Origin: Escherichia phage EJP2
Length of the DNA: 64,000 nucleotides
Reading direction: 5' to 3' (one strand)
Sequence record: OQ411014.1
The translations under genes and the position numbers were made by a program. Positions 3,879 to 60,782 of this stretch are shown piece after piece (position 1 is the stretch's first letter; every line of letters begins with the position of its first letter). Below the pieces are notes generated by a model. The model did not search any database. It was not told the origin of the DNA and saw only the letters and a list, made by a program, of their open reading frames with translations.

Positions 3879-4736
3879 ATGCGTTTGAGATTGGTTATTT
3901 CCAGTGCAGATGATCAGTTGTGGGTTAGGCCAGCGGACAGTACTAGACGTGTTCGTCTACCATCAGTTCATGGTCATACCTTTATTGTTGAGAACAAACA
4001 ATCAACATTAGAAGAAGCCTTTCGTCTATTCATTGGTGATTATGAATGTAAGCCATTCAATGACTATCATTGCACTTATGAAGTTGTTGATATTCCTGAT
4101 GAGTACATGTTCCAGTTGGCACTATTAGGCGTTCATGAGATGGACTTCCTTGTGTACAATAACGTCACTAAGAAAATGGCAATTTGTTCAGCAGTACATT
4201 TGGCTGTTGAATATACAATGGCAACTAATTCCAAGGTAGGTTATAACCAATCTTCTTATCGTAATAGTACTGCTACTACTAACGATGTTGTATTCCAGTG
4301 GGAGTACAAAAGTGACGAGTGGAAGACTAAGAACGATGATGTTACTGTTCATACAGTACTGGATAGTACTTATGATAATATCTATCAGTACATTGAGCCT
4401 AACCTAATGGAATGGGCTTGTAGGATGTACAGTAACATTGCTGATACTTTACGTCCTAGAGTTTATGGGTTCAAGAACTGGAAAAGTAAGATTGATACAT
4501 CTGATGAACCAGTAGCGTATGAAAAGTCCTACCCGTACTATAACTTCAGTGATTTATATTTCCTGTTCAATCAGTACTGCAACGATGAAGCGATGTTTTT
4601 GTACGCACAGGATGTAATCTCCGATTCAGCAATTGAGATATTGCGTGAACTGTACTGTCATTGTCAGTTTATCAGTACTAACATTCAGGTCGGCAAGGAT
4701 TACATAAAATTCTGTGATGAAAGAAGATCACGATAA
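3879..4736 (+). CDS. hypothetical protein
   Basis: 285-aa ORF with RBS GAGG. Confidence 0.55.
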   Translation: MRLRLVISSADDQLWVRPADSTRRVRLPSVHGHTFIVENKQSTLEEAFRLFIGDYECKPFNDYHCTYEVVDIPDEYMFQLALLGVHEMDFLVYNNVTKKMAICSAVHLAVEYTMATNSKVGYNQSSYRNSTATTNDVVFQWEYKSDEWKTKNDDVTVHTVLDSTYDNIYQYIEPNLMEWACRMYSNIADTLRPRVYGFKNWKSKIDTSDEPVAYEKSYPYYNFSDLYFLFNQYCNDEAMFLYAQDVISDSAIEILRELYCHCQFISTNIQVGKDYIKFCDERRSR

Positions 4737-4737
4737 T

Positions 4738-4767
4738 TTGAGCATTCATAAAAAAATGTGATATAAT
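4738..4767 (+). promoter_or_regulatory. sigma70-type promoter with extended -10 (TGaTATAAT)
   Basis: TTGAGC 4738-4743 and TATAAT 4762-4767; nearly identical to the promoter at 58672-58701. Confidence 0.55.
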
Positions 4768-4773
4768 TAGTAC

Positions 4774-5320
4774 TACGGATGGTTAGCTATCCGTATTTTA
4801 AATTTGAATGACCAGTACTACATACTGGTACGTTTTAACCCTGATTCACTCGAAAATGTAGAGGACAGTTGAGTACGCATTCAAGTACGTTCAGCAGAAG
4901 AAACCCGTTAGGTGTAGGCATAGTTTGTACCTCCCACGGCAATGTGGCTGATTAAACCATGAAGAGTAATACGATGACTCATGGCTTGCTTATGGCATGA
5001 TAGACATATAAGGATCGCTCCTTACCAAAATGTATAAGGGAATCTTATAAATTTTTGTAGGACTGATTAGAGGCTTACCCTTGATCCGTCCAAAATTTGA
5101 AGATACAGTACAGTACTGTTTATGTGGTAATGTATTGATGCGTGCTAAGACCACGACCGTTGCATAGAAACGCGATAGGAAGAAACAGGGCAACCCGCTT
5201 CCGTTCTTAATAGAAATTCGTAACATAAAATGATGACACATACCAGCGTCAAACTTTGTTCTTCCCTCCCTGTGGGGGGATGAAAATGAATCTACAAAAC
5301 CTCGTCAAATAATAATAAGA
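4774..5320 (+). ncRNA. candidate structured noncoding RNA, copy A (unknown class)
   Basis: 740-nt gap between + genes with its own promoter and no conserved reading frame; shares blocks with the locus at 58.7 kb (CACUCGAAAAUGUAGAGG, GAAACCCGU, CACGACCGUUG, AAACAGGGCAACCCG, ACAAACCUCGUCAA); stem GGAAG/CUUCC at 5178-5202 covaries with GCUGG/CCAGC in copy B. Confidence 0.45.
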
Positions 5321-5476
5321 AAGTACTAAATCAATTAGAACGAACGCTAGTGAGTGATAATTGATTTAGTAACAGTAACGCTTCGCTAGAAGTGTTACTC
5401 GTTGTTTAAGAATAAAATAACTTAGTGAGTTTTGGTTCTTTTGTTGTTCACTAAGTCCCTATAGAGAGAATATTAG

Positions 5477-5998
5477 ATGCCAGTGAAATATAAATCCCTT
5501 GATGGTGTTGTGAAGTACAAAGATCAAATGACTGAACAGGAATTACAAGAGTTCAGTGGGTACAAAATCGAGGGCAGTGCGGCACGTATTTCATACATTG
5601 AAGAGTACAAAGACGGAGATTTACTAGGGAAAATTATCCTTAGAATGACAAAAGCCCCAATCATATTTCGGGTAGTATACAAGGGATATAATGAAATTCG
5701 GTACAATACTGGAAGTGTTTCATCTAGATATTGCAGTAATGGTGATGTTTTTTGTGGTGAAATGCTGAGATATGATATGAATGGGAAGCTACAGGTTCGG
5801 GACTTTTTGAATCTAGGCAAGAACGTAACTGATGATATTGTTACTGAATTTGGTATCTCTGATATACTACAGCATGAATTTACAGAAGAAGAGTTATTCC
5901 GACTCTATATGAAATACGATTCAGGATTTAGATTCGTATCGGAATATAATAGAACTCCTGAACACTTCGATTCAGTACTGAAGGCGTGTTTGGAATAA
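5477..5998 (+). CDS. hypothetical protein
   Basis: 173-aa ORF. Confidence 0.55.
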   Translation: MPVKYKSLDGVVKYKDQMTEQELQEFSGYKIEGSAARISYIEEYKDGDLLGKIILRMTKAPIIFRVVYKGYNEIRYNTGSVSSRYCSNGDVFCGEMLRYDMNGKLQVRDFLNLGKNVTDDIVTEFGISDILQHEFTEEELFRLYMKYDSGFRFVSEYNRTPEHFDSVLKACLE

Positions 5999-6013: not shown

Positions 6014-6532
6014 ATGGATGATAAAAAATCAAAGATGGATATACACTTTTCATCTAAAGCTCAAACTTGGAATACTCCAAGAGATTTATGGAATAAAATA
6101 AATGCAGTATGGAAGTTCACTCTAGATGCTGCGTGTTTAGAAAATAGTGCCTTGTGCGAAAAGTACTTCACTCCTGAAGACGATTCATTAGAACAGGACT
6201 GGGGTGATAACATAGTATGGCTTAACCCACCCTATAACGACCTCAAGACTTGGCTATCGAAGGCAGTACAGGAATATAAGAAAGGCTCTACAGTTGTCAT
6301 TCTGGTCCCTTCTAGGACGGATACAAAGGCATTCCAGGACTATGCTTCTAAAGAATGTTCGTGTATTTGTTTTATTAAGGGAAGACTCAAGTTCTTTGAT
6401 CCAGCTAGACCACCTGATGCGAGGGCAGACCCAGCACCATTCCCTAGCTGTTTGATAGTACTGGATGATGATCTTACACAAGAGAAAATCGATTTTCTAA
6501 AAACTCTAGGTCAGGTAATGAAGAATGTCTAA
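6014..6532 (+). CDS. DNA N6-adenine methyltransferase (phage Dam-type)
   Basis: NPPY motif (VWLNPPYNDLKTW) typical of amino-methyltransferases; size fits small phage Dam family. Confidence 0.6.
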   Translation: MDDKKSKMDIHFSSKAQTWNTPRDLWNKINAVWKFTLDAACLENSALCEKYFTPEDDSLEQDWGDNIVWLNPPYNDLKTWLSKAVQEYKKGSTVVILVPSRTDTKAFQDYASKECSCICFIKGRLKFFDPARPPDARADPAPFPSCLIVLDDDLTQEKIDFLKTLGQVMKNV

Positions 6533-7064
6533 ACGCTGTGTCTTTATGTTCGGCAGAATGAACCCGTGCCACCTCGGACACGGGAAAGTATTTGAAAAAG
6601 CACTACAACTAAAGGATAATGAAACTGATGTGAAGTTGTTCCTTAGTGCTTCGTTTGATCCTAAAAAGAATCCACTACCAAGAGAAGTTCGTCAGTACTA
6701 CATATCTGAGTTCTTCCCTGAAATAAAAGATTCTATACAAGATACAAACATAAACAATTTATTTGATATAATGAAATCACTTGATACTTATTATAGTGAT
6801 GTAATATTCGTAGGTGGTTCAGACAGGGCGAGTTCCTTCCAAGAACTACTACTGAAGTACAATAACAAACAGTACTCATTCGATTCTATCAGTACTGTAC
6901 TAGCTGGAACATCAAGAGAAGAATCTATGTTCAGTTCTACTCTAATGCGTAATGCAGTACAGAAGGACGATTTCAGTACTTTCAAGATATGTCTCCCTGG
7001 GGATAATGAATACTTGAAGTACGATATGTTCGCTGGTGTAAAGAAGTACATGAAAAATATTTGA
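6525..7064 (+). CDS. HxGH-family nucleotidyltransferase (cytidylyl/adenylyltransferase-like)
   Basis: N-terminal FGRMNPCHLGHG (GxFxPxHxGH) and C-terminal SSTLMR (ISSTxxR-like) motifs; overlaps the methyltransferase gene by 8 nt. Confidence 0.55.
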   Translation: MSKRCVFMFGRMNPCHLGHGKVFEKALQLKDNETDVKLFLSASFDPKKNPLPREVRQYYISEFFPEIKDSIQDTNINNLFDIMKSLDTYYSDVIFVGGSDRASSFQELLLKYNNKQYSFDSISTVLAGTSREESMFSSTLMRNAVQKDDFSTFKICLPGDNEYLKYDMFAGVKKYMKNI

Positions 7065-7678
7065 CACCTATCTATAGCCATGATACTATATGTACATGGC
7101 TATTTCTATATGAAGGTACTATAATGAAAGCAAAAGATCTGTTTGATATGGTTCACTCCAATCGTAAGCACCAATTGAATATTAATAGATCATTCAAGTT
7201 TGGTCACATGGATGTTACATATATAAAGTCATTTGGTTCTGATTTATTCTTGGTTGAGCTTGCTCAAGCTGGTAAATCTAAACGAGTATGTGAAATAATC
7301 TATTGTCCTCTCGAAGAAGAAAATGATACTTATGTTCCAGTTAAAGTATTTGATACTAAAGTCAAATTATCCAAGACTGAAATTGAGTTTGGTTTTCCGG
7401 TGGATGAAAAATTGAAGGATACAATTCGGTTTGTTCCGACTGATTTCAAAACTCCAGCATTTGATATAGACTTCAGTACTGAAGAATCGGCTTCACAAGC
7501 TATGTTCATTCATGATTTCGACCCCAAGAACTGTGAGTACCTAATGGCGGCTACACGTGCATTACAAGAAGTGTACCACCAGCCTGGATATGGGTACATG
7601 ATTATTTCGAGTACTTCTCCGGCATTACTGTGTGATGTACTAGGGATTGAAGTCCAAGTAGGAGTATACAATGCGTGA
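7061..7678 (+). CDS. paralogous early-gene family member
   Basis: C-terminal motif SASQAMFIHDFDP matching the shared E-x-x-F-Q/S-A-S/T-h-V-x-D/E-h-D module. Confidence 0.55.
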   Translation: MTPIYSHDTICTWLFLYEGTIMKAKDLFDMVHSNRKHQLNINRSFKFGHMDVTYIKSFGSDLFLVELAQAGKSKRVCEIIYCPLEEENDTYVPVKVFDTKVKLSKTEIEFGFPVDEKLKDTIRFVPTDFKTPAFDIDFSTEESASQAMFIHDFDPKNCEYLMAATRALQEVYHQPGYGYMIISSTSPALLCDVLGIEVQVGVYNA

Positions 7679-8222
7679 TAAAGTTCAACACATATTGAAT
7701 TGTATGCAGAAGAAAGTTCACGTTCAGAATGATGTACTTGATATGCAAGTATATACAATTCTATCTTCAGAAGATGGCGTGTTTAGTTCAACTATTCGAT
7801 GCCGCAATAAAAATAGCGGTTCCTTTACTATTATGCTAAGGAAGAAGACTGAAATGATTACTGCTCCTAGTTCAGTACTGGGACAAAACGACACATACAA
7901 TACAGTTTACACTTCTCTTGCAATGAAGATGGCAATCTTCTGTACGCATGGTAATCCCCTACACATTGTTCGTGGGGATAGTACAATAGGTGATGATGTC
8001 GTTCAGGATTTGAGTGACGAAGGTTTCTTTCGCTTGTTATTGGCAGTTGACCCGAAGTATAATATCGATATAGATGGGTACAAGCAGGTTCTTGAAATGA
8101 TTTATGCATTCGAAGAAGTAGTACCTGAAGATTGGACTATTGTTATTAGCTCACCATTAGATAATTTACATTCAATAGATGTTGATTCTATCTATTCAGT
8201 ACTGAAGGATGTCGTAGTATGA
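7671..8222 (+). CDS. hypothetical protein, possible family member
   Basis: DEGFFRLLLAVDP resembles the family motif; start overlaps the upstream gene. Confidence 0.5.
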   Translation: MRDKVQHILNCMQKKVHVQNDVLDMQVYTILSSEDGVFSSTIRCRNKNSGSFTIMLRKKTEMITAPSSVLGQNDTYNTVYTSLAMKMAIFCTHGNPLHIVRGDSTIGDDVVQDLSDEGFFRLLLAVDPKYNIDIDGYKQVLEMIYAFEEVVPEDWTIVISSPLDNLHSIDVDSIYSVLKDVVV

Positions 8223-8788
8223 ATGCCGCAGAGTTTGTTAGAGCACTTGTTGGTTTAGCTAAAGTGAAAACTTATAGAGGAAATATCACTAAATCAAATT
8301 CGCATTTTGTTCCACGTAATGGTCGTGAACATCTATTCGTTGATTCATTACTCATCAAGGGTATCGATGCATATGAAGAAATATACATTTCTATAGATAT
8401 GTGTGATGGATTCTTGAATTCCATTGCAGTTCATACAAGAAATAGATATACTCATTTCTCTATGTACAGAAAAACGGCATACACAGAGTATGATAAGTAC
8501 GCAATGGAAGAAACCTCCCCAGGGCGTTTCCTTATGCTTTTTCACAATGAAATTACCGAGCGTGATTTAATCATGAATCACAAGGGTGAATTTATTGTGC
8601 ACATGGACAATGAAAGTGAAGTGTTCAGTACTTTATTAGTACATAACTTCGATATAGAAAAGTACAGAGAAATTCATGAAACCTATAAGTGCATTGATGA
8701 ACTTAAAACTGACCTCTCATTCAGTACATATGATACTAATTGTGGTCTGAATTTCGCAGCACTATATCAAATTATATGGAAGGCATAA
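8219..8788 (+). CDS. paralogous early-gene family member
   Basis: motif ESEVFSTLLVHNFD; ATGA overlap with the upstream gene. Confidence 0.55.
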   Translation: MNAAEFVRALVGLAKVKTYRGNITKSNSHFVPRNGREHLFVDSLLIKGIDAYEEIYISIDMCDGFLNSIAVHTRNRYTHFSMYRKTAYTEYDKYAMEETSPGRFLMLFHNEITERDLIMNHKGEFIVHMDNESEVFSTLLVHNFDIEKYREIHETYKCIDELKTDLSFSTYDTNCGLNFAALYQIIWKA

Positions 8789-58293: not shown

Positions 58294-58666
58294 TTTTTCT
58301 AATTTGGAATACGTCAGTGCAGTCAAAAATATCAGTACTGAAGATGATATCAAATACGTTACTACTACGATTACGTTCTTGCGTAAAGAAGATAGTATTG
58401 CTCATCTAACTGGACTTGAGAAGACTTTCGCTGAACTCAAATTACAAGAAGAATCAAAGTACATCAAACTTGCTTCGGTGTACACTACGGTTGAAGATGT
58501 TATCCAGAAAGATGAGCCAATTAAGGTGATTTTTTCTGGGATAAATAAAAAGTACCGGCAGGTTACTCGTTCTGAAACGGATGAGAACATGCACATTATT
58601 CTGAATGACATTCAGTTCGTAGATATGGTTTTTGACCGTTCTGAAAATAAACATGTTTACATGTAG
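58277..58666 (+). CDS. hypothetical protein
   Basis: 129-aa ORF. Confidence 0.5.
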   Translation: MIQDIDFSNLEYVSAVKNISTEDDIKYVTTTITFLRKEDSIAHLTGLEKTFAELKLQEESKYIKLASVYTTVEDVIQKDEPIKVIFSGINKKYRQVTRSETDENMHIILNDIQFVDMVFDRSENKHVYM

Positions 58667-58671
58667 TATTT

Positions 58672-58701
58672 TTGAGATGAATGAAAATTTTGTGATATAA
58701 T
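58672..58701 (+). promoter_or_regulatory. sigma70-type promoter with extended -10 (TGTGATATAAT)
   Basis: TTGAGA 58672-58677 and TATAAT 58696-58701; near-identical to the promoter at 4738-4767. Confidence 0.55.
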
Positions 58702-58707
58702 GTATAG

Positions 58708-59235
58708 TACGGATAACACCTATGTTGAATGTCTTTGATAAACAGAACCTGATCCACTCGAAAATGTAGAGGGCAGATGAGTAGAACATTCACTACGAAG
58801 TGCAAATGAAACCCGTCAGTAATAAAGCGTAAGTGCGGTCATACAAACGAGACGTAAGACACACGCGACACGGCAAAGCGGCACTATAAAAGCGATAAGA
58901 AAACATATTCGCTCTTGATAGACTTATGAGGCATACTCACCCAGTTGAAAGGGAGTCTCTTTACGGAGAGACAGCAGTATTTGTTGCTGAATTAGCAAGT
59001 ACTGTAAGCGTGTGAGGAACACGACCGTTGTATGCAGACTGTAGTAGCTGGAAACAGGACAACCCGCCAGCGTTGCTACTTTTATTTGTACGGGAAAGAT
59101 CCGTCCAAAAAGTAGTGAATCTACAAATTCAGATTGGTAAGACTACCAGCGTCAGGATATTCCTGATTTTTTTTCGGCCCTCCCTTGTGGGGGGATGGAA
59201 TTGGATCAACAAACCTCGTCAAGTATAATATGAAT
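58708..59235 (+). ncRNA. candidate structured noncoding RNA, copy B (unknown class)
   Basis: 688-nt intergenic gap with promoter; shares sequence blocks with locus A and the covarying stem GCUGG/CCAGC at 59047-59071; the only ORF (59028-59228) starts with TTG and its frame is not conserved in copy A. Confidence 0.45.
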
Positions 59236-59354
59236 AGTATTAGTACTTAATAATTCAAATGAATTGAGAGATATGAGATGAGCGATAGCGAAATCGAATA
59301 TGTCTCAATTCTTGGCTTACGCAGTAAGCCAACGAAACATTACAGGAGCTTATC

Positions 59355-59765
59355 ATGAGTCAGTTAGAACCAATTGTAGGATCTTATAATATTTTCTTCA
59401 AAGATACCAATGTAACACCAAGCAGTTCATATAACCAAAATACACGTGTAAGTACTTACACAATTGAGCATTTAAGTACTGGCAAGAATTTCAGTACTGA
59501 ATACGGGAAGTACGTCCAGAAGAACTCCGATTGTTTTCAGCTATTTCGTAACTCCCCACGTCAAGATATTTTACTAATCACAAACGAAGTGGAGTTCCGT
59601 CAAAGATCTCTTGATTTCCCTAATGCAGTTCATTATACTATTAGTGATATCGACTTCATCAAAGTACTTGTTCATTACGACGAAGTATCAAAGGTAAGTA
59701 CTTTTGAGGATTTGTCTTTTGATGAAGTAATTGCACTCAAGGATAAACTATATGAAAGCAAGTGA
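59355..59765 (+). CDS. hypothetical protein
   Basis: 136-aa ORF with RBS AGGAG. Confidence 0.55.
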   Translation: MSQLEPIVGSYNIFFKDTNVTPSSSYNQNTRVSTYTIEHLSTGKNFSTEYGKYVQKNSDCFQLFRNSPRQDILLITNEVEFRQRSLDFPNAVHYTISDIDFIKVLVHYDEVSKVSTFEDLSFDEVIALKDKLYESK

Positions 59766-60291
59766 ACTAGCTGCGATTCTACTCAAGAATCCAGATATGG
59801 AAGTATATACGGAGAATCATCATTATGACAGTTATGATAATGACTCTTATTTCACTACAGAAAAAGTAGATTCAGTAGTACTGTCACCTGATGGTCTTTT
59901 CTTGAATTTCAAAACTATTGACACGGATACTGCACTGAAGACTCCAATGAGTAAACCGAAGTTGCATACGTTCCGTATAAAACTAAAAGATGGTGAGTAC
60001 TTTAGGATTCCAGAGAGTTACCACACTCTCAGTACTTTGATTGATTTCGAAGTTGAAGGTCATATGGTATTTTATGTGTCATGGCATGATGACTGGTGGA
60101 TTTTAGCACCTGAAGATACAGAAGATGAGTTCGTAAAAGAAAAAATATCTTATTCTTCATCTACACATTACACTCCAGATGATGTAGAATGTGTTCAGAT
60201 AATTACTGCACTAGATGATAAGTGGGAACCAATCTACACTGACTTCACTTTGCAAGATGCCATTGAATTTGCCAATAGGAATACTAAATGA
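59752..60291 (+). CDS. hypothetical protein, paralog of the 60288-60782 gene
   Basis: start set to MKASELAAILLKNPDMEVY, which parallels MKAKDLIDLLKNDPEQELY of the next gene. Confidence 0.5.
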   Translation: MKASELAAILLKNPDMEVYTENHHYDSYDNDSYFTTEKVDSVVLSPDGLFLNFKTIDTDTALKTPMSKPKLHTFRIKLKDGEYFRIPESYHTLSTLIDFEVEGHMVFYVSWHDDWWILAPEDTEDEFVKEKISYSSSTHYTPDDVECVQIITALDDKWEPIYTDFTLQDAIEFANRNTK

Positions 60292-60782
60292 AAGCTAAAG
60301 ACCTAATCGATTTACTAAAAAATGATCCAGAACAAGAACTATACGTGCAGCTTTCCCGAACAACTTCATGGGATGAAGATTACTGTACTGCTCATGTAGT
60401 GACTGATATTGAGATGACTCCATCTGGTATTTTCATTGAGTATGACTATCATAGTGCTAAGTCTGTAAAGATGCCAGCAGATGCACCATATGTCGGAGCT
60501 TTCCGTATCTTCCTGAAAAATGGTGAAGAATTCATTCCTAATGAAGTAGAAGATTTCTGGCCTAGTATTTTTGATTTTGGTTACTACGCATCATACAAAA
60601 CTGACAACGAATGTGTTGTACTGGAGTATAGTGAAGAATGTCAATACAATCCTGATAAAGTTGTCAGTACTGTAGATGATGTAGATCGTGTTGAAGTTGT
60701 AACTAGCGTTCAAGGATGGAAAACAGAATGGACATCTATGACGTTCCAGGAAGCATTCGAGTTTATGACGAATCTAGAGTAA
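60288..60782 (+). CDS. hypothetical protein, paralog of the 59752-60291 gene
   Basis: N- and C-termini align with the upstream gene; ATGA overlap. Confidence 0.5.
   Translation: MKAKDLIDLLKNDPEQELYVQLSRTTSWDEDYCTAHVVTDIEMTPSGIFIEYDYHSAKSVKMPADAPYVGAFRIFLKNGEEFIPNEVEDFWPSIFDFGYYASYKTDNECVVLEYSEECQYNPDKVVSTVDDVDRVEVVTSVQGWKTEWTSMTFQEAFEFMTNLE

Follow-up and report, generated by a model that had tools for sequence, protein, structure and literature searches.

The 64,000-nucleotide (nt) stretch of Escherichia phage EJP2 analyzed in this study (OQ411014.1; hereafter the window) contains two intergenic regions, locus A and locus B, and we have little doubt that both are genes belonging to one new family of large non-coding RNAs, predicted to be independently transcribed. 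Locus A is a gap of 740 nt (4738-5476), bounded by an open reading frame (ORF) of 285 amino acids (aa) ending at 4736 and an ORF of 173 aa starting at 5477, and no ORF of at least 30 aa is present on its + strand. Its paralog, locus B (58670-59354), occupies the gap between an ORF ending at 58666 and an ORF starting at 59355. A preliminary description of locus A had proposed a structured RNA of ~0.5 kb with one paralog at 58.7 kb. The number of copies holds within the window, where a profile search detected exactly A and B and additional copies were sought in vain, while related genomes hold four to five; the size holds for the core of ~500 nt, while the transcript is probably longer, since a second structured domain follows the core.

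Both loci start with a sigma-70-type promoter with a TG-extended -10 box, and the two promoters are near-identical to each other. The promoter proposed earlier for locus A, TTGAGC-N18-TGaTATAAT, was confirmed at 4738-4767 on the + strand (-35 box at 4738-4743, 18-nt spacer, extended -10 box at 4759-4767; 10/12 match with TG), and locus B has the matching TTGAGA-N18-TGaTATAAT at 58672-58701 on the same strand (11/12 match with TG). In an alignment of 46 copies, TATAAT hardly varies at the 5' edge, and the promoter is kept in every context in which copies of the family were found. The paper on phage CBB reports promoters in which a TGAAACG -35-like box is combined with a classic -10 box; this form of the box is present in many copies of the RNA, while the two window copies have TTGAGC and TTGAGA instead.

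The sequence blocks said to be common to A and the 58.7-kb locus are all present in both, as judged from exact searches and pairwise alignment. The window has exactly two occurrences of the block CACTCGAAAATGTAGAGG, at 4847 and 58755 (0.01 expected), AAACAGGRCAACCCG is found at 5183 in A and 59052 in B, and the remaining blocks line up in the pairwise alignment. The two loci are 58% identical over 456 aligned columns, and 21 modeled base pairs differ on both sides between them with pairing retained. Single-sequence folding gave minimum-free-energy z-scores of -4.8 (A) and -6.0 (B).

Covariation, coding potential, and known RNA families

RNAalifold applied to 30 copies predicted 73 pairs, 46 of which show compensatory double changes. 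A model of 98 pairs in 20 helices was then counted on a separate alignment of 46 diverse copies, in which 90.4% of the cells form a standard pair, as compared with 71.7% in shuffled alignments (0/500 reach the observed value) and 39-44% when the partners were slid by 1-3 columns; related alignments had served to build the model, and phylogeny is not taken into account in the shuffles. The covariation score was 0.49 (0.18 shuffled; ≤0.11 slid), and 76 of the 98 pairs are changed on both sides (59.6 shuffled; 40-46 slid). Of the two controls, sliding the partners is the fairer one, and its outcome is decisive as well. Three long-range pseudoknots, PKa, PKb, and PKc, were derived from mutual information and a stem scan and are supported by the pair counts. 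Together with the strong covariation, they bear out the proposal of a structured non-coding RNA with a paralog. The 339 G-U cells favor the + strand (90.4% paired vs. 84.7% when read on the other strand), in agreement with the orientation of promoters and terminators.

The compensatory stem that had been pointed out between the two copies, GGAAG/CUUCC in A (5178-5182 with 5198-5202) versus GCUGG/CCAGC in B (59047-59051 with 59067-59071), is real. It corresponds to helix 18 of the model, which is 100% paired across the 46 members with 4 of its 5 pairs changing on both sides. Two candidate helices were rejected: the closing helix 5' UGAC/3' GUCA suggested by RNAalifold, which clashes with the better-supported PKa and hairpin h2, and helix 10 (5004-5007 with 5030-5033), in which 52% of the cells pair.

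No reading frame is conserved among the 46 homologs, whose longest ORFs range from 36 to 130 aa and lie on either strand, and the earlier view that no conserved small protein is encoded is upheld. A small peptide starting at GGGGGGAUG was considered and rejected: in place of the apparent AUG that follows the G-run, several copies have AUA, AUU, or AUC, so the start codon is not conserved, and the frame of the peptide shifts between copies.

Nor was the RNA assigned to a known family, as had been anticipated. A scan of the whole window against Rfam 15, which covers GOLLD, ROOL, OLE, HEARO, raiA, RNase P, tmRNA, 6S, group I/II introns, and C4 antisense RNA among others, gave no family at the gathering threshold, and permissive searches (E < 10 on A and B; E < 1 on an island copy and the 3' domain of B) gave only chance matches of 11-22 bits. 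ARAGORN found no tRNA or tmRNA gene in the window. A group I intron was rejected, the RNA being intergenic with its own promoter, its helix order being different, and Rfam giving no match. What is found here instead agrees with the large ornate phage RNAs: a length of >400 nt, many covarying helices with pseudoknots, the non-coding character, and a stand-alone gene present both in phages and in integrated mobile elements. We found no description of the RNA in the genome papers of Rak2-like phages or in the large surveys of structured RNAs, the survey of 10,006 candidate viral RNAs (PMC10690425) being covered without its supplement, and the family appears to be undescribed.

Anatomy of the RNA

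Each gene almost certainly consists of its own sigma-70-type promoter, a core of ~500 nt with ~20 helices tied together by three long-range pseudoknots, and a smaller structured 3' domain, with a predicted size of roughly 0.5-0.65 kb. The features of locus A and B described below are all on the + strand, and the core of A extends from 4804 to 5308. It is preceded by a terminator-like 5' hairpin, UACGGAUGG/CUAUCCGUA followed by UUUU (4774-4799), which starts at about +1 and is confined to A- and B-type copies; orthologous hairpins differing in sequence are visible in the alignment.

The core opens with the 5' strand of PKa, UUGAAUG (4804-4810), which pairs with CAUUCAA (4878-4884), the loop of a short stem GUA/UAC (4873-4888). 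PKa (helix 1) is 89% paired with 6/7 pairs changing on both sides, and the short stem (helix 4) is 100% paired, with U-A, A-U, and C-G types. Between the two strands of PKa lie a variable hairpin CCAGUA/UACUGG (4812-4828; helix 2), in which 6/6 pairs covary and 72% of the cells pair in a region aligning poorly, and the hairpin that contains one of the blocks of the preliminary description and has the conserved loop GAAAAUGUA (4841-4868; helix 3, 92% paired, 7/8 pairs covarying). A domain closed by UCAGC/GCUGA (4891-4951; helices 5-8) holds CCGU/ACGG and a peripheral hairpin, which is replaced by a larger insert in other paralogs. It is followed by the variable hairpin CCAUG/UAUGG (4957-4995; helix 9, 95% paired, 5/5 pairs covarying) and by a conserved joining region, GAUAGACAUAUAAGG-hairpin-UACC...UAUAAGGGA (5000-5041), which includes an invariant AAGGGA and an inner hairpin that is partly supported (helices 11-12).

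In the second half of the core, a long hairpin (5106-5137; helix 13, 90.5% paired, 12/13 pairs covarying) presents in its loop the 5' strand of PKb (5119-5124), which pairs with CAUAAA (5224-5229) to form helix 14 (96% paired, 6/6 pairs covarying). Enclosed by this pseudoknot are the hairpin CGUG/CACG (5141-5155; helix 15) and the 5' strand of PKc, GUUGC (5159-5163), whose partner GCAAC (5190-5194) is located in the loop of the GGAAG/CUUCC stem; helix 16 thus formed is 100% paired, and its variable pair occurs as C-G, U-A, and A-U. The GGAAG/CUUCC stem (5178-5202) and a hairpin at 5205-5214 are held in a domain closed by CGCGA/UCGUA (5171-5222), in which helices 17-19 are 97-100% paired and 12/13 pairs covary.

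The last ~80 nt of the core, referred to as the tail, contain two repeats, R1 ACCAGCGUCAA (5242-5252; consensus A-Y-C-A-N-C-G-U-C-A-R) and R2 ACCUCGUCAA (5299-5308; consensus A-Y-C-N-C-G-U-C-A-R), the latter forming the end of the core. Between them, the hairpin CCUCCC-UGU-GGGGGG followed by a conserved AUGAAAAU (5265-5279; helix 20, 96% paired, C-G/U-G changes only) is the only supported structure of the tail. A Watson-Crick partner for the repeats was looked for in the form of a complementary column, and none was found.

Downstream of the core, locus A has a 3' hairpin with the loop GAACGAACGCUAGUGAG (5329-5368), a motif that recurs downstream of most copies and is absent elsewhere on the + strand of the window, and then a terminator-like hairpin of 11 bp followed by CGUUGUUUAA (5374-5409), which is the probable 3' end of the predicted transcript. 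Actually, most copies have a second covarying domain 30-60 nt 3' of the core, which had escaped the preliminary description. It has the form GAAUUGAG ... hairpin with loop GAACGnAGUGA ... AAUUC, then UUGAC-hairpin-GGCAA, and its terminal hairpin covaries. In locus B this domain (59261-59332) is made of a GAAUUGAGA/UCUCAAUUC stem around an inner hairpin and then a hairpin UUGGCUUAC-GCA-GUAAGCCAA, with the next gene starting at 59355, and its counterpart in locus A is the related hairpin at 5329-5368. Motif searches led us to reject the idea that the motifs of the 3' domain are a general repeat of the genome.

Pairwise alignment and profile search gave the same helices for the core of locus B (58725-59222). 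Its pseudoknots are PKa (58725-58731 with 58787-58793), PKb (58987-58992 with 59127-59132), and PKc (59027-59031 with 59059-59063), and its tail comprises R1 (59145-59155), the C/G hairpin (59180-59194), and R2 (59213-59222). An internal terminator-like hairpin with a U-run is present at 59151-59167.

Across the family, more than 70 nucleotides of the core are invariant, many of them in joining regions, and peripheral modules are swapped or relocated among copies around a constant core. Module swapping around a fixed core is typical of large ribozymes and ornate RNAs. A movable module, GAUCCGUCCAAAAUUUGA, occupies a middle position in locus A (5083-5100), as seen from the alignment, while in B-type copies it comes after the GAAAC...CAACCCGC hairpin (59098-59112 in B), and some copies carry it at both positions. 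We regard this as a putative natural permutation of a peripheral element, on the basis of the alignment only. It reminds us of the natural non-circular permutations described for non-coding RNAs (PMC10085705), with which it has in common a conserved block plus hairpin at two alternative positions of the chain among paralogs, although that paper treats other RNA families and some copies here have the block at both positions.

Distribution among jumbo phages and chromosomal islands

BLASTN placed the window in the Rak2/121Q group of jumbo myoviruses (~350 kb), with Erwinia phage Hallingskeid as the closest deposited relative (82-87% identical over the loci). Several copies are present in each of the 70 matching phage records, mostly four to five for the locus A query and one to five for the locus B query, and the names of the phages refer to Escherichia, Klebsiella, Salmonella, Erwinia, Serratia, Yersinia, Cronobacter, Pectobacterium, and Xanthomonas. 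The family was searched with nhmmer profiles and with an invariant pattern, GACCGTTG-N12-24-GAAACNGNNCAACCCG. The pattern gave 52 matches in IMG/VR (contigs of 16 kb to ~378 kb, mostly ~350 kb or fragments of such phages), 86 in metagenomes, and 5 in 100,044 species genomes, of which 3 were confirmed as real copies; the profile search over all collected sequences yielded 155 copies. The regions have no annotation in curated records (Munch, 121Q, BF, GAP32), and automated records call tiny ORFs in them.

The A type is located at ~24-35 kb of the phage genomes, two genes upstream of a Dam methyltransferase gene, and the B type at ~93-99 kb; these positions hold in BF, GAP32, CBB, Yen9-04, XbC2, and the pEa phages. 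All copies of a genome are co-oriented and tens of kb apart, at ~30, 93, 174, and 259 kb in BF and ~35, 99, 261, and 341 kb in GAP32. A stringent terminator is found within 220 nt downstream of 20 of 82 copies.

Full-length single copies of the RNA were also detected in integrase-bearing islands of Enterobacterales chromosomes, so the family is not limited to jumbo phages. At 13 loci the RNA adjoins an integrase gene, a CI-like repressor gene, or both: a convergent CI-like gene is present at ten, and at ten there is a nearby integrase of the tyrosine or serine type, with a chromosomal CorC gene just beyond it in one case. In Silvania hatchlandensis (NZ_JAMGZK010000045), the copy is at 7650-8360 on the minus strand, with its own promoter TGAAAC-N17-TATACT, and in the surrounding 8 kb the RNA is the only nucleotide similarity to deposited phages. 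A gene for a large serine recombinase is followed by the RNA on the same strand, with a palindromic, terminator-like hairpin apparent between them, and by a convergent CI-like repressor gene (helix-turn-helix plus S24 peptidase); beyond the repressor are a 286-aa ORF, an LprI-like ORF, a resolvase, DarT with an ADP-ribosylglycohydrolase, and a GajB-like UvrD helicase.

Among complete Escherichia coli genomes, 2/5,426 have a match. The one examined, a full-length copy in strain LR-29-1 (NZ_AP027515; 394 bits; 6958-7543 of the extracted locus), resides in an ~11-kb island between ffs and ybaA, together with an IS3-disrupted integrase gene and the candidate defense system PDC-M45, and the Prokaryotic Genome Annotation Pipeline leaves a gap of 1.4 kb around it unannotated. 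Defense genes are thus near the RNA in both islands examined (DarT with glycohydrolase and GajB-like helicase; PDC-M45). The island proteins gave no informative PHROG or NCBIfam match and had no homolog in deposited phages. Judged by sequence similarity, the RNA appears to spread horizontally as a promoter-plus-RNA unit, because the similarity of the Silvania locus is restricted to the RNA and because a full-length copy is present in the E. coli island next to ffs.

The gene neighbors of A are unrelated to those of B, and no linked protein gene was found. A Dam-type N6-adenine methyltransferase gene and a cytidylyltransferase-like gene are located two genes downstream of locus A (6014-7064), a neighborhood conserved in 6/6 deposited A-type loci examined. 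Three consecutive genes 3' of locus B (59355-60782; 136, 186, and 164 aa) all match phrog_18200, a PHROG with no assigned function, and form a tandem array of paralogs. As a genome-wide signal, the palindrome AGTACT occurs 283 times in the 64 kb as compared with ~24 expected (13-fold over base composition; 0/100 shuffles reach it), evenly spaced about every 190 bp over the whole window (e.g., at 4769, 4814, 5112, and 5322), unlike GGTACC and CGTACG, which are not enriched in the window.

Possible functions of the RNA

We favor, at a probability of about 0.5, a stand-alone folded RNA particle that would act in trans, by analogy with GOLLD or ROOL. Host RNA polymerase would transcribe the RNA strongly, the RNA would fold unaided into a compact particle, and the particle would act upon a component of the host or of the phage, serving as a scaffold or decoy or possibly as a catalyst. 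This reading is preferred because the fold is complex, the joining regions are invariant, peripheral modules can be swapped, and the RNA moves horizontally as a promoter-plus-RNA unit. GOLLD (Rfam RF01998) and ROOL (RF03087) are large ornate RNAs of phages and prophages. The RNA described here has in common with them the size class of ~0.5-0.8 kb, the many helices and pseudoknots, the highly conserved joining regions, and the stand-alone genes encoded by lytic phages as well as integrated elements. It differs from them in that it matches neither model in sequence or structure, in that its hosts are Enterobacterales and its carriers Rak2-like jumbo phages instead of Lactobacillales or rumen organisms, and in that it has no adjacent tRNA genes and is present as four to five diverged paralogs at fixed positions per jumbo genome.

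Several observations weigh against a trans-acting particle. Across several genera, each paralog retains a matching genome position of its own, the copy number tracks the size of the replicon (four to five per 350 kb vs. one per island), and the tail repeats change by identity instead of complementarity: R1 changes in step with R2, the same pyrimidine being present at Y in 82/82 unique copies, and in RaK2-type copies both repeats switch jointly from C to G and from G to U, which resembles iterons. A role in cis that depends on position, or a role at the DNA level, would account for these three features better than one purely in trans. In addition, the RNA showed no homology to ncRNA001, 002, and 004, which were defined by RNA-seq in the related phage PA5oct (MK797984); nhmmer at maximum sensitivity gave no match and the invariant motifs are absent. 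PA5oct, a distantly related jumbo phage, has highly expressed non-coding RNAs of its own, which are different from this family.

The strongest rival, which we nevertheless consider unlikely, is a replication-origin module, that is, a structured primer RNA such as RNA II of ColE1 or the R-loop transcripts of T4 oriF/oriG. The 3' part of the RNA would stay hybridized to the template, and the hybrid would prime leading-strand synthesis, with several origins for a jumbo genome and one for a small island. Scaling of copy number with replicon size, retention of each paralog at its own position, the invariant G6 run facing a C-run near the 3' end (helix 20), and the iteron-like repeats fit such a module better than a trans role. 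The dispersed and co-oriented copies, the promoter-to-tail distance of ~500 nt, the failure to find a linked protein gene, and the fact that the island copies belong to the backbone and adjoin integrase and repressor genes also agree with it. On the other hand, three pseudoknots and more than 70 invariant nucleotides exceed the needs of any known primer RNA, and a covarying RNA domain runs 30-150 nt past the presumed priming site. The GC skew is positive all along the window and shows no inflection at 4.7 or 58.7 kb, a test that is weak in phages whose skew follows transcription, and no antisense regulator was detected. The resemblance to ColE1 RNA II extends to a transcript of ~0.5 kb (predicted here), a strong promoter, a fold that matters, a G-run/C-run near the 3' end, and the lack of a dedicated protein gene, but not to an antisense RNA I partner, which was not found here, and the tertiary structure is far more elaborate and has a structured domain downstream of the core.

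It is improbable that the RNA is a cis-acting transcription element, in which the nascent RNA would modify its own polymerase by processive antitermination, as does put of phage HK022, or control read-through downstream. The RNA is always directly downstream of a promoter, in jumbo phages it leads long blocks of genes on the same strand, and copies of the B, C, and D types contain internal terminator-like hairpins, those of the A type having one at the 5' end. However, in islands the RNA faces the 3' end of the CI-like gene and has no gene to control, none of the ten convergent loci having a same-strand gene after it; strong terminators follow C- and D-type copies; a hairpin and then a fresh TTGTATAAT promoter follow the A-type copies of BF/XbC2-type phages; and the downstream genes are unrelated between paralogs. 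HK022 put is likewise a promoter-proximal structured RNA with more than one copy per phage genome, but it has ~70 nt and two stem-loops, as compared with ~500 nt (about seven times larger) and three pseudoknots here. A riboswitch or cis-regulatory leader was rejected in the same way: there is no conserved class of downstream genes, A and B being followed by different genes and ten island copies converging on the CI-like gene. The convergent island arrangement, the unrelated neighbors, the downstream terminators, and the fresh promoter all argue against it.

A small conserved peptide, or a DNA repeat without a role at the RNA level, is highly improbable and already largely refuted: automated annotations place tiny ORFs on the minus strand, GGGGGGAUG looks like a ribosome-binding site with a start codon, and the tail repeats could be DNA binding sites, but the ORFs are not conserved, be it in position, strand, or frame, the putative start codon and frame are not maintained, and a DNA repeat does not predict compensatory changes in 76 of 98 pairs.

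New, well-supported classes of multiply pseudoknotted RNA above 400 nt are, to our knowledge, seldom found in bacteria or phages. OLE, GOLLD, ROOL, raiA, and HEARO each led to unexpected biology or to unprecedented RNA architecture. The family also matters for genome annotation, since its gaps of 0.7 kb are left empty by current pipelines or filled with spurious small ORFs. We consider it possible, though doubtful at present, that the RNA is a shared functional link between Rak2-like jumbo phages and integrative defense-type islands: it may be an origin/primer or other cis element that satellite-like islands have copied to exploit or sense a jumbo phage, or else a new natural ribozyme or self-assembling particle that phages and islands both deploy against the host or against each other. 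The fixed set of paralogs, the relocated peripheral module, the co-changing tail repeats, and the presence in chromosomal defense-type islands offer routes to its function, and because the family is present in cultured phages of E. coli, Salmonella, and Klebsiella (121Q, PBECO4, Munch, RaK2), it would be far easier to study than GOLLD or ROOL.

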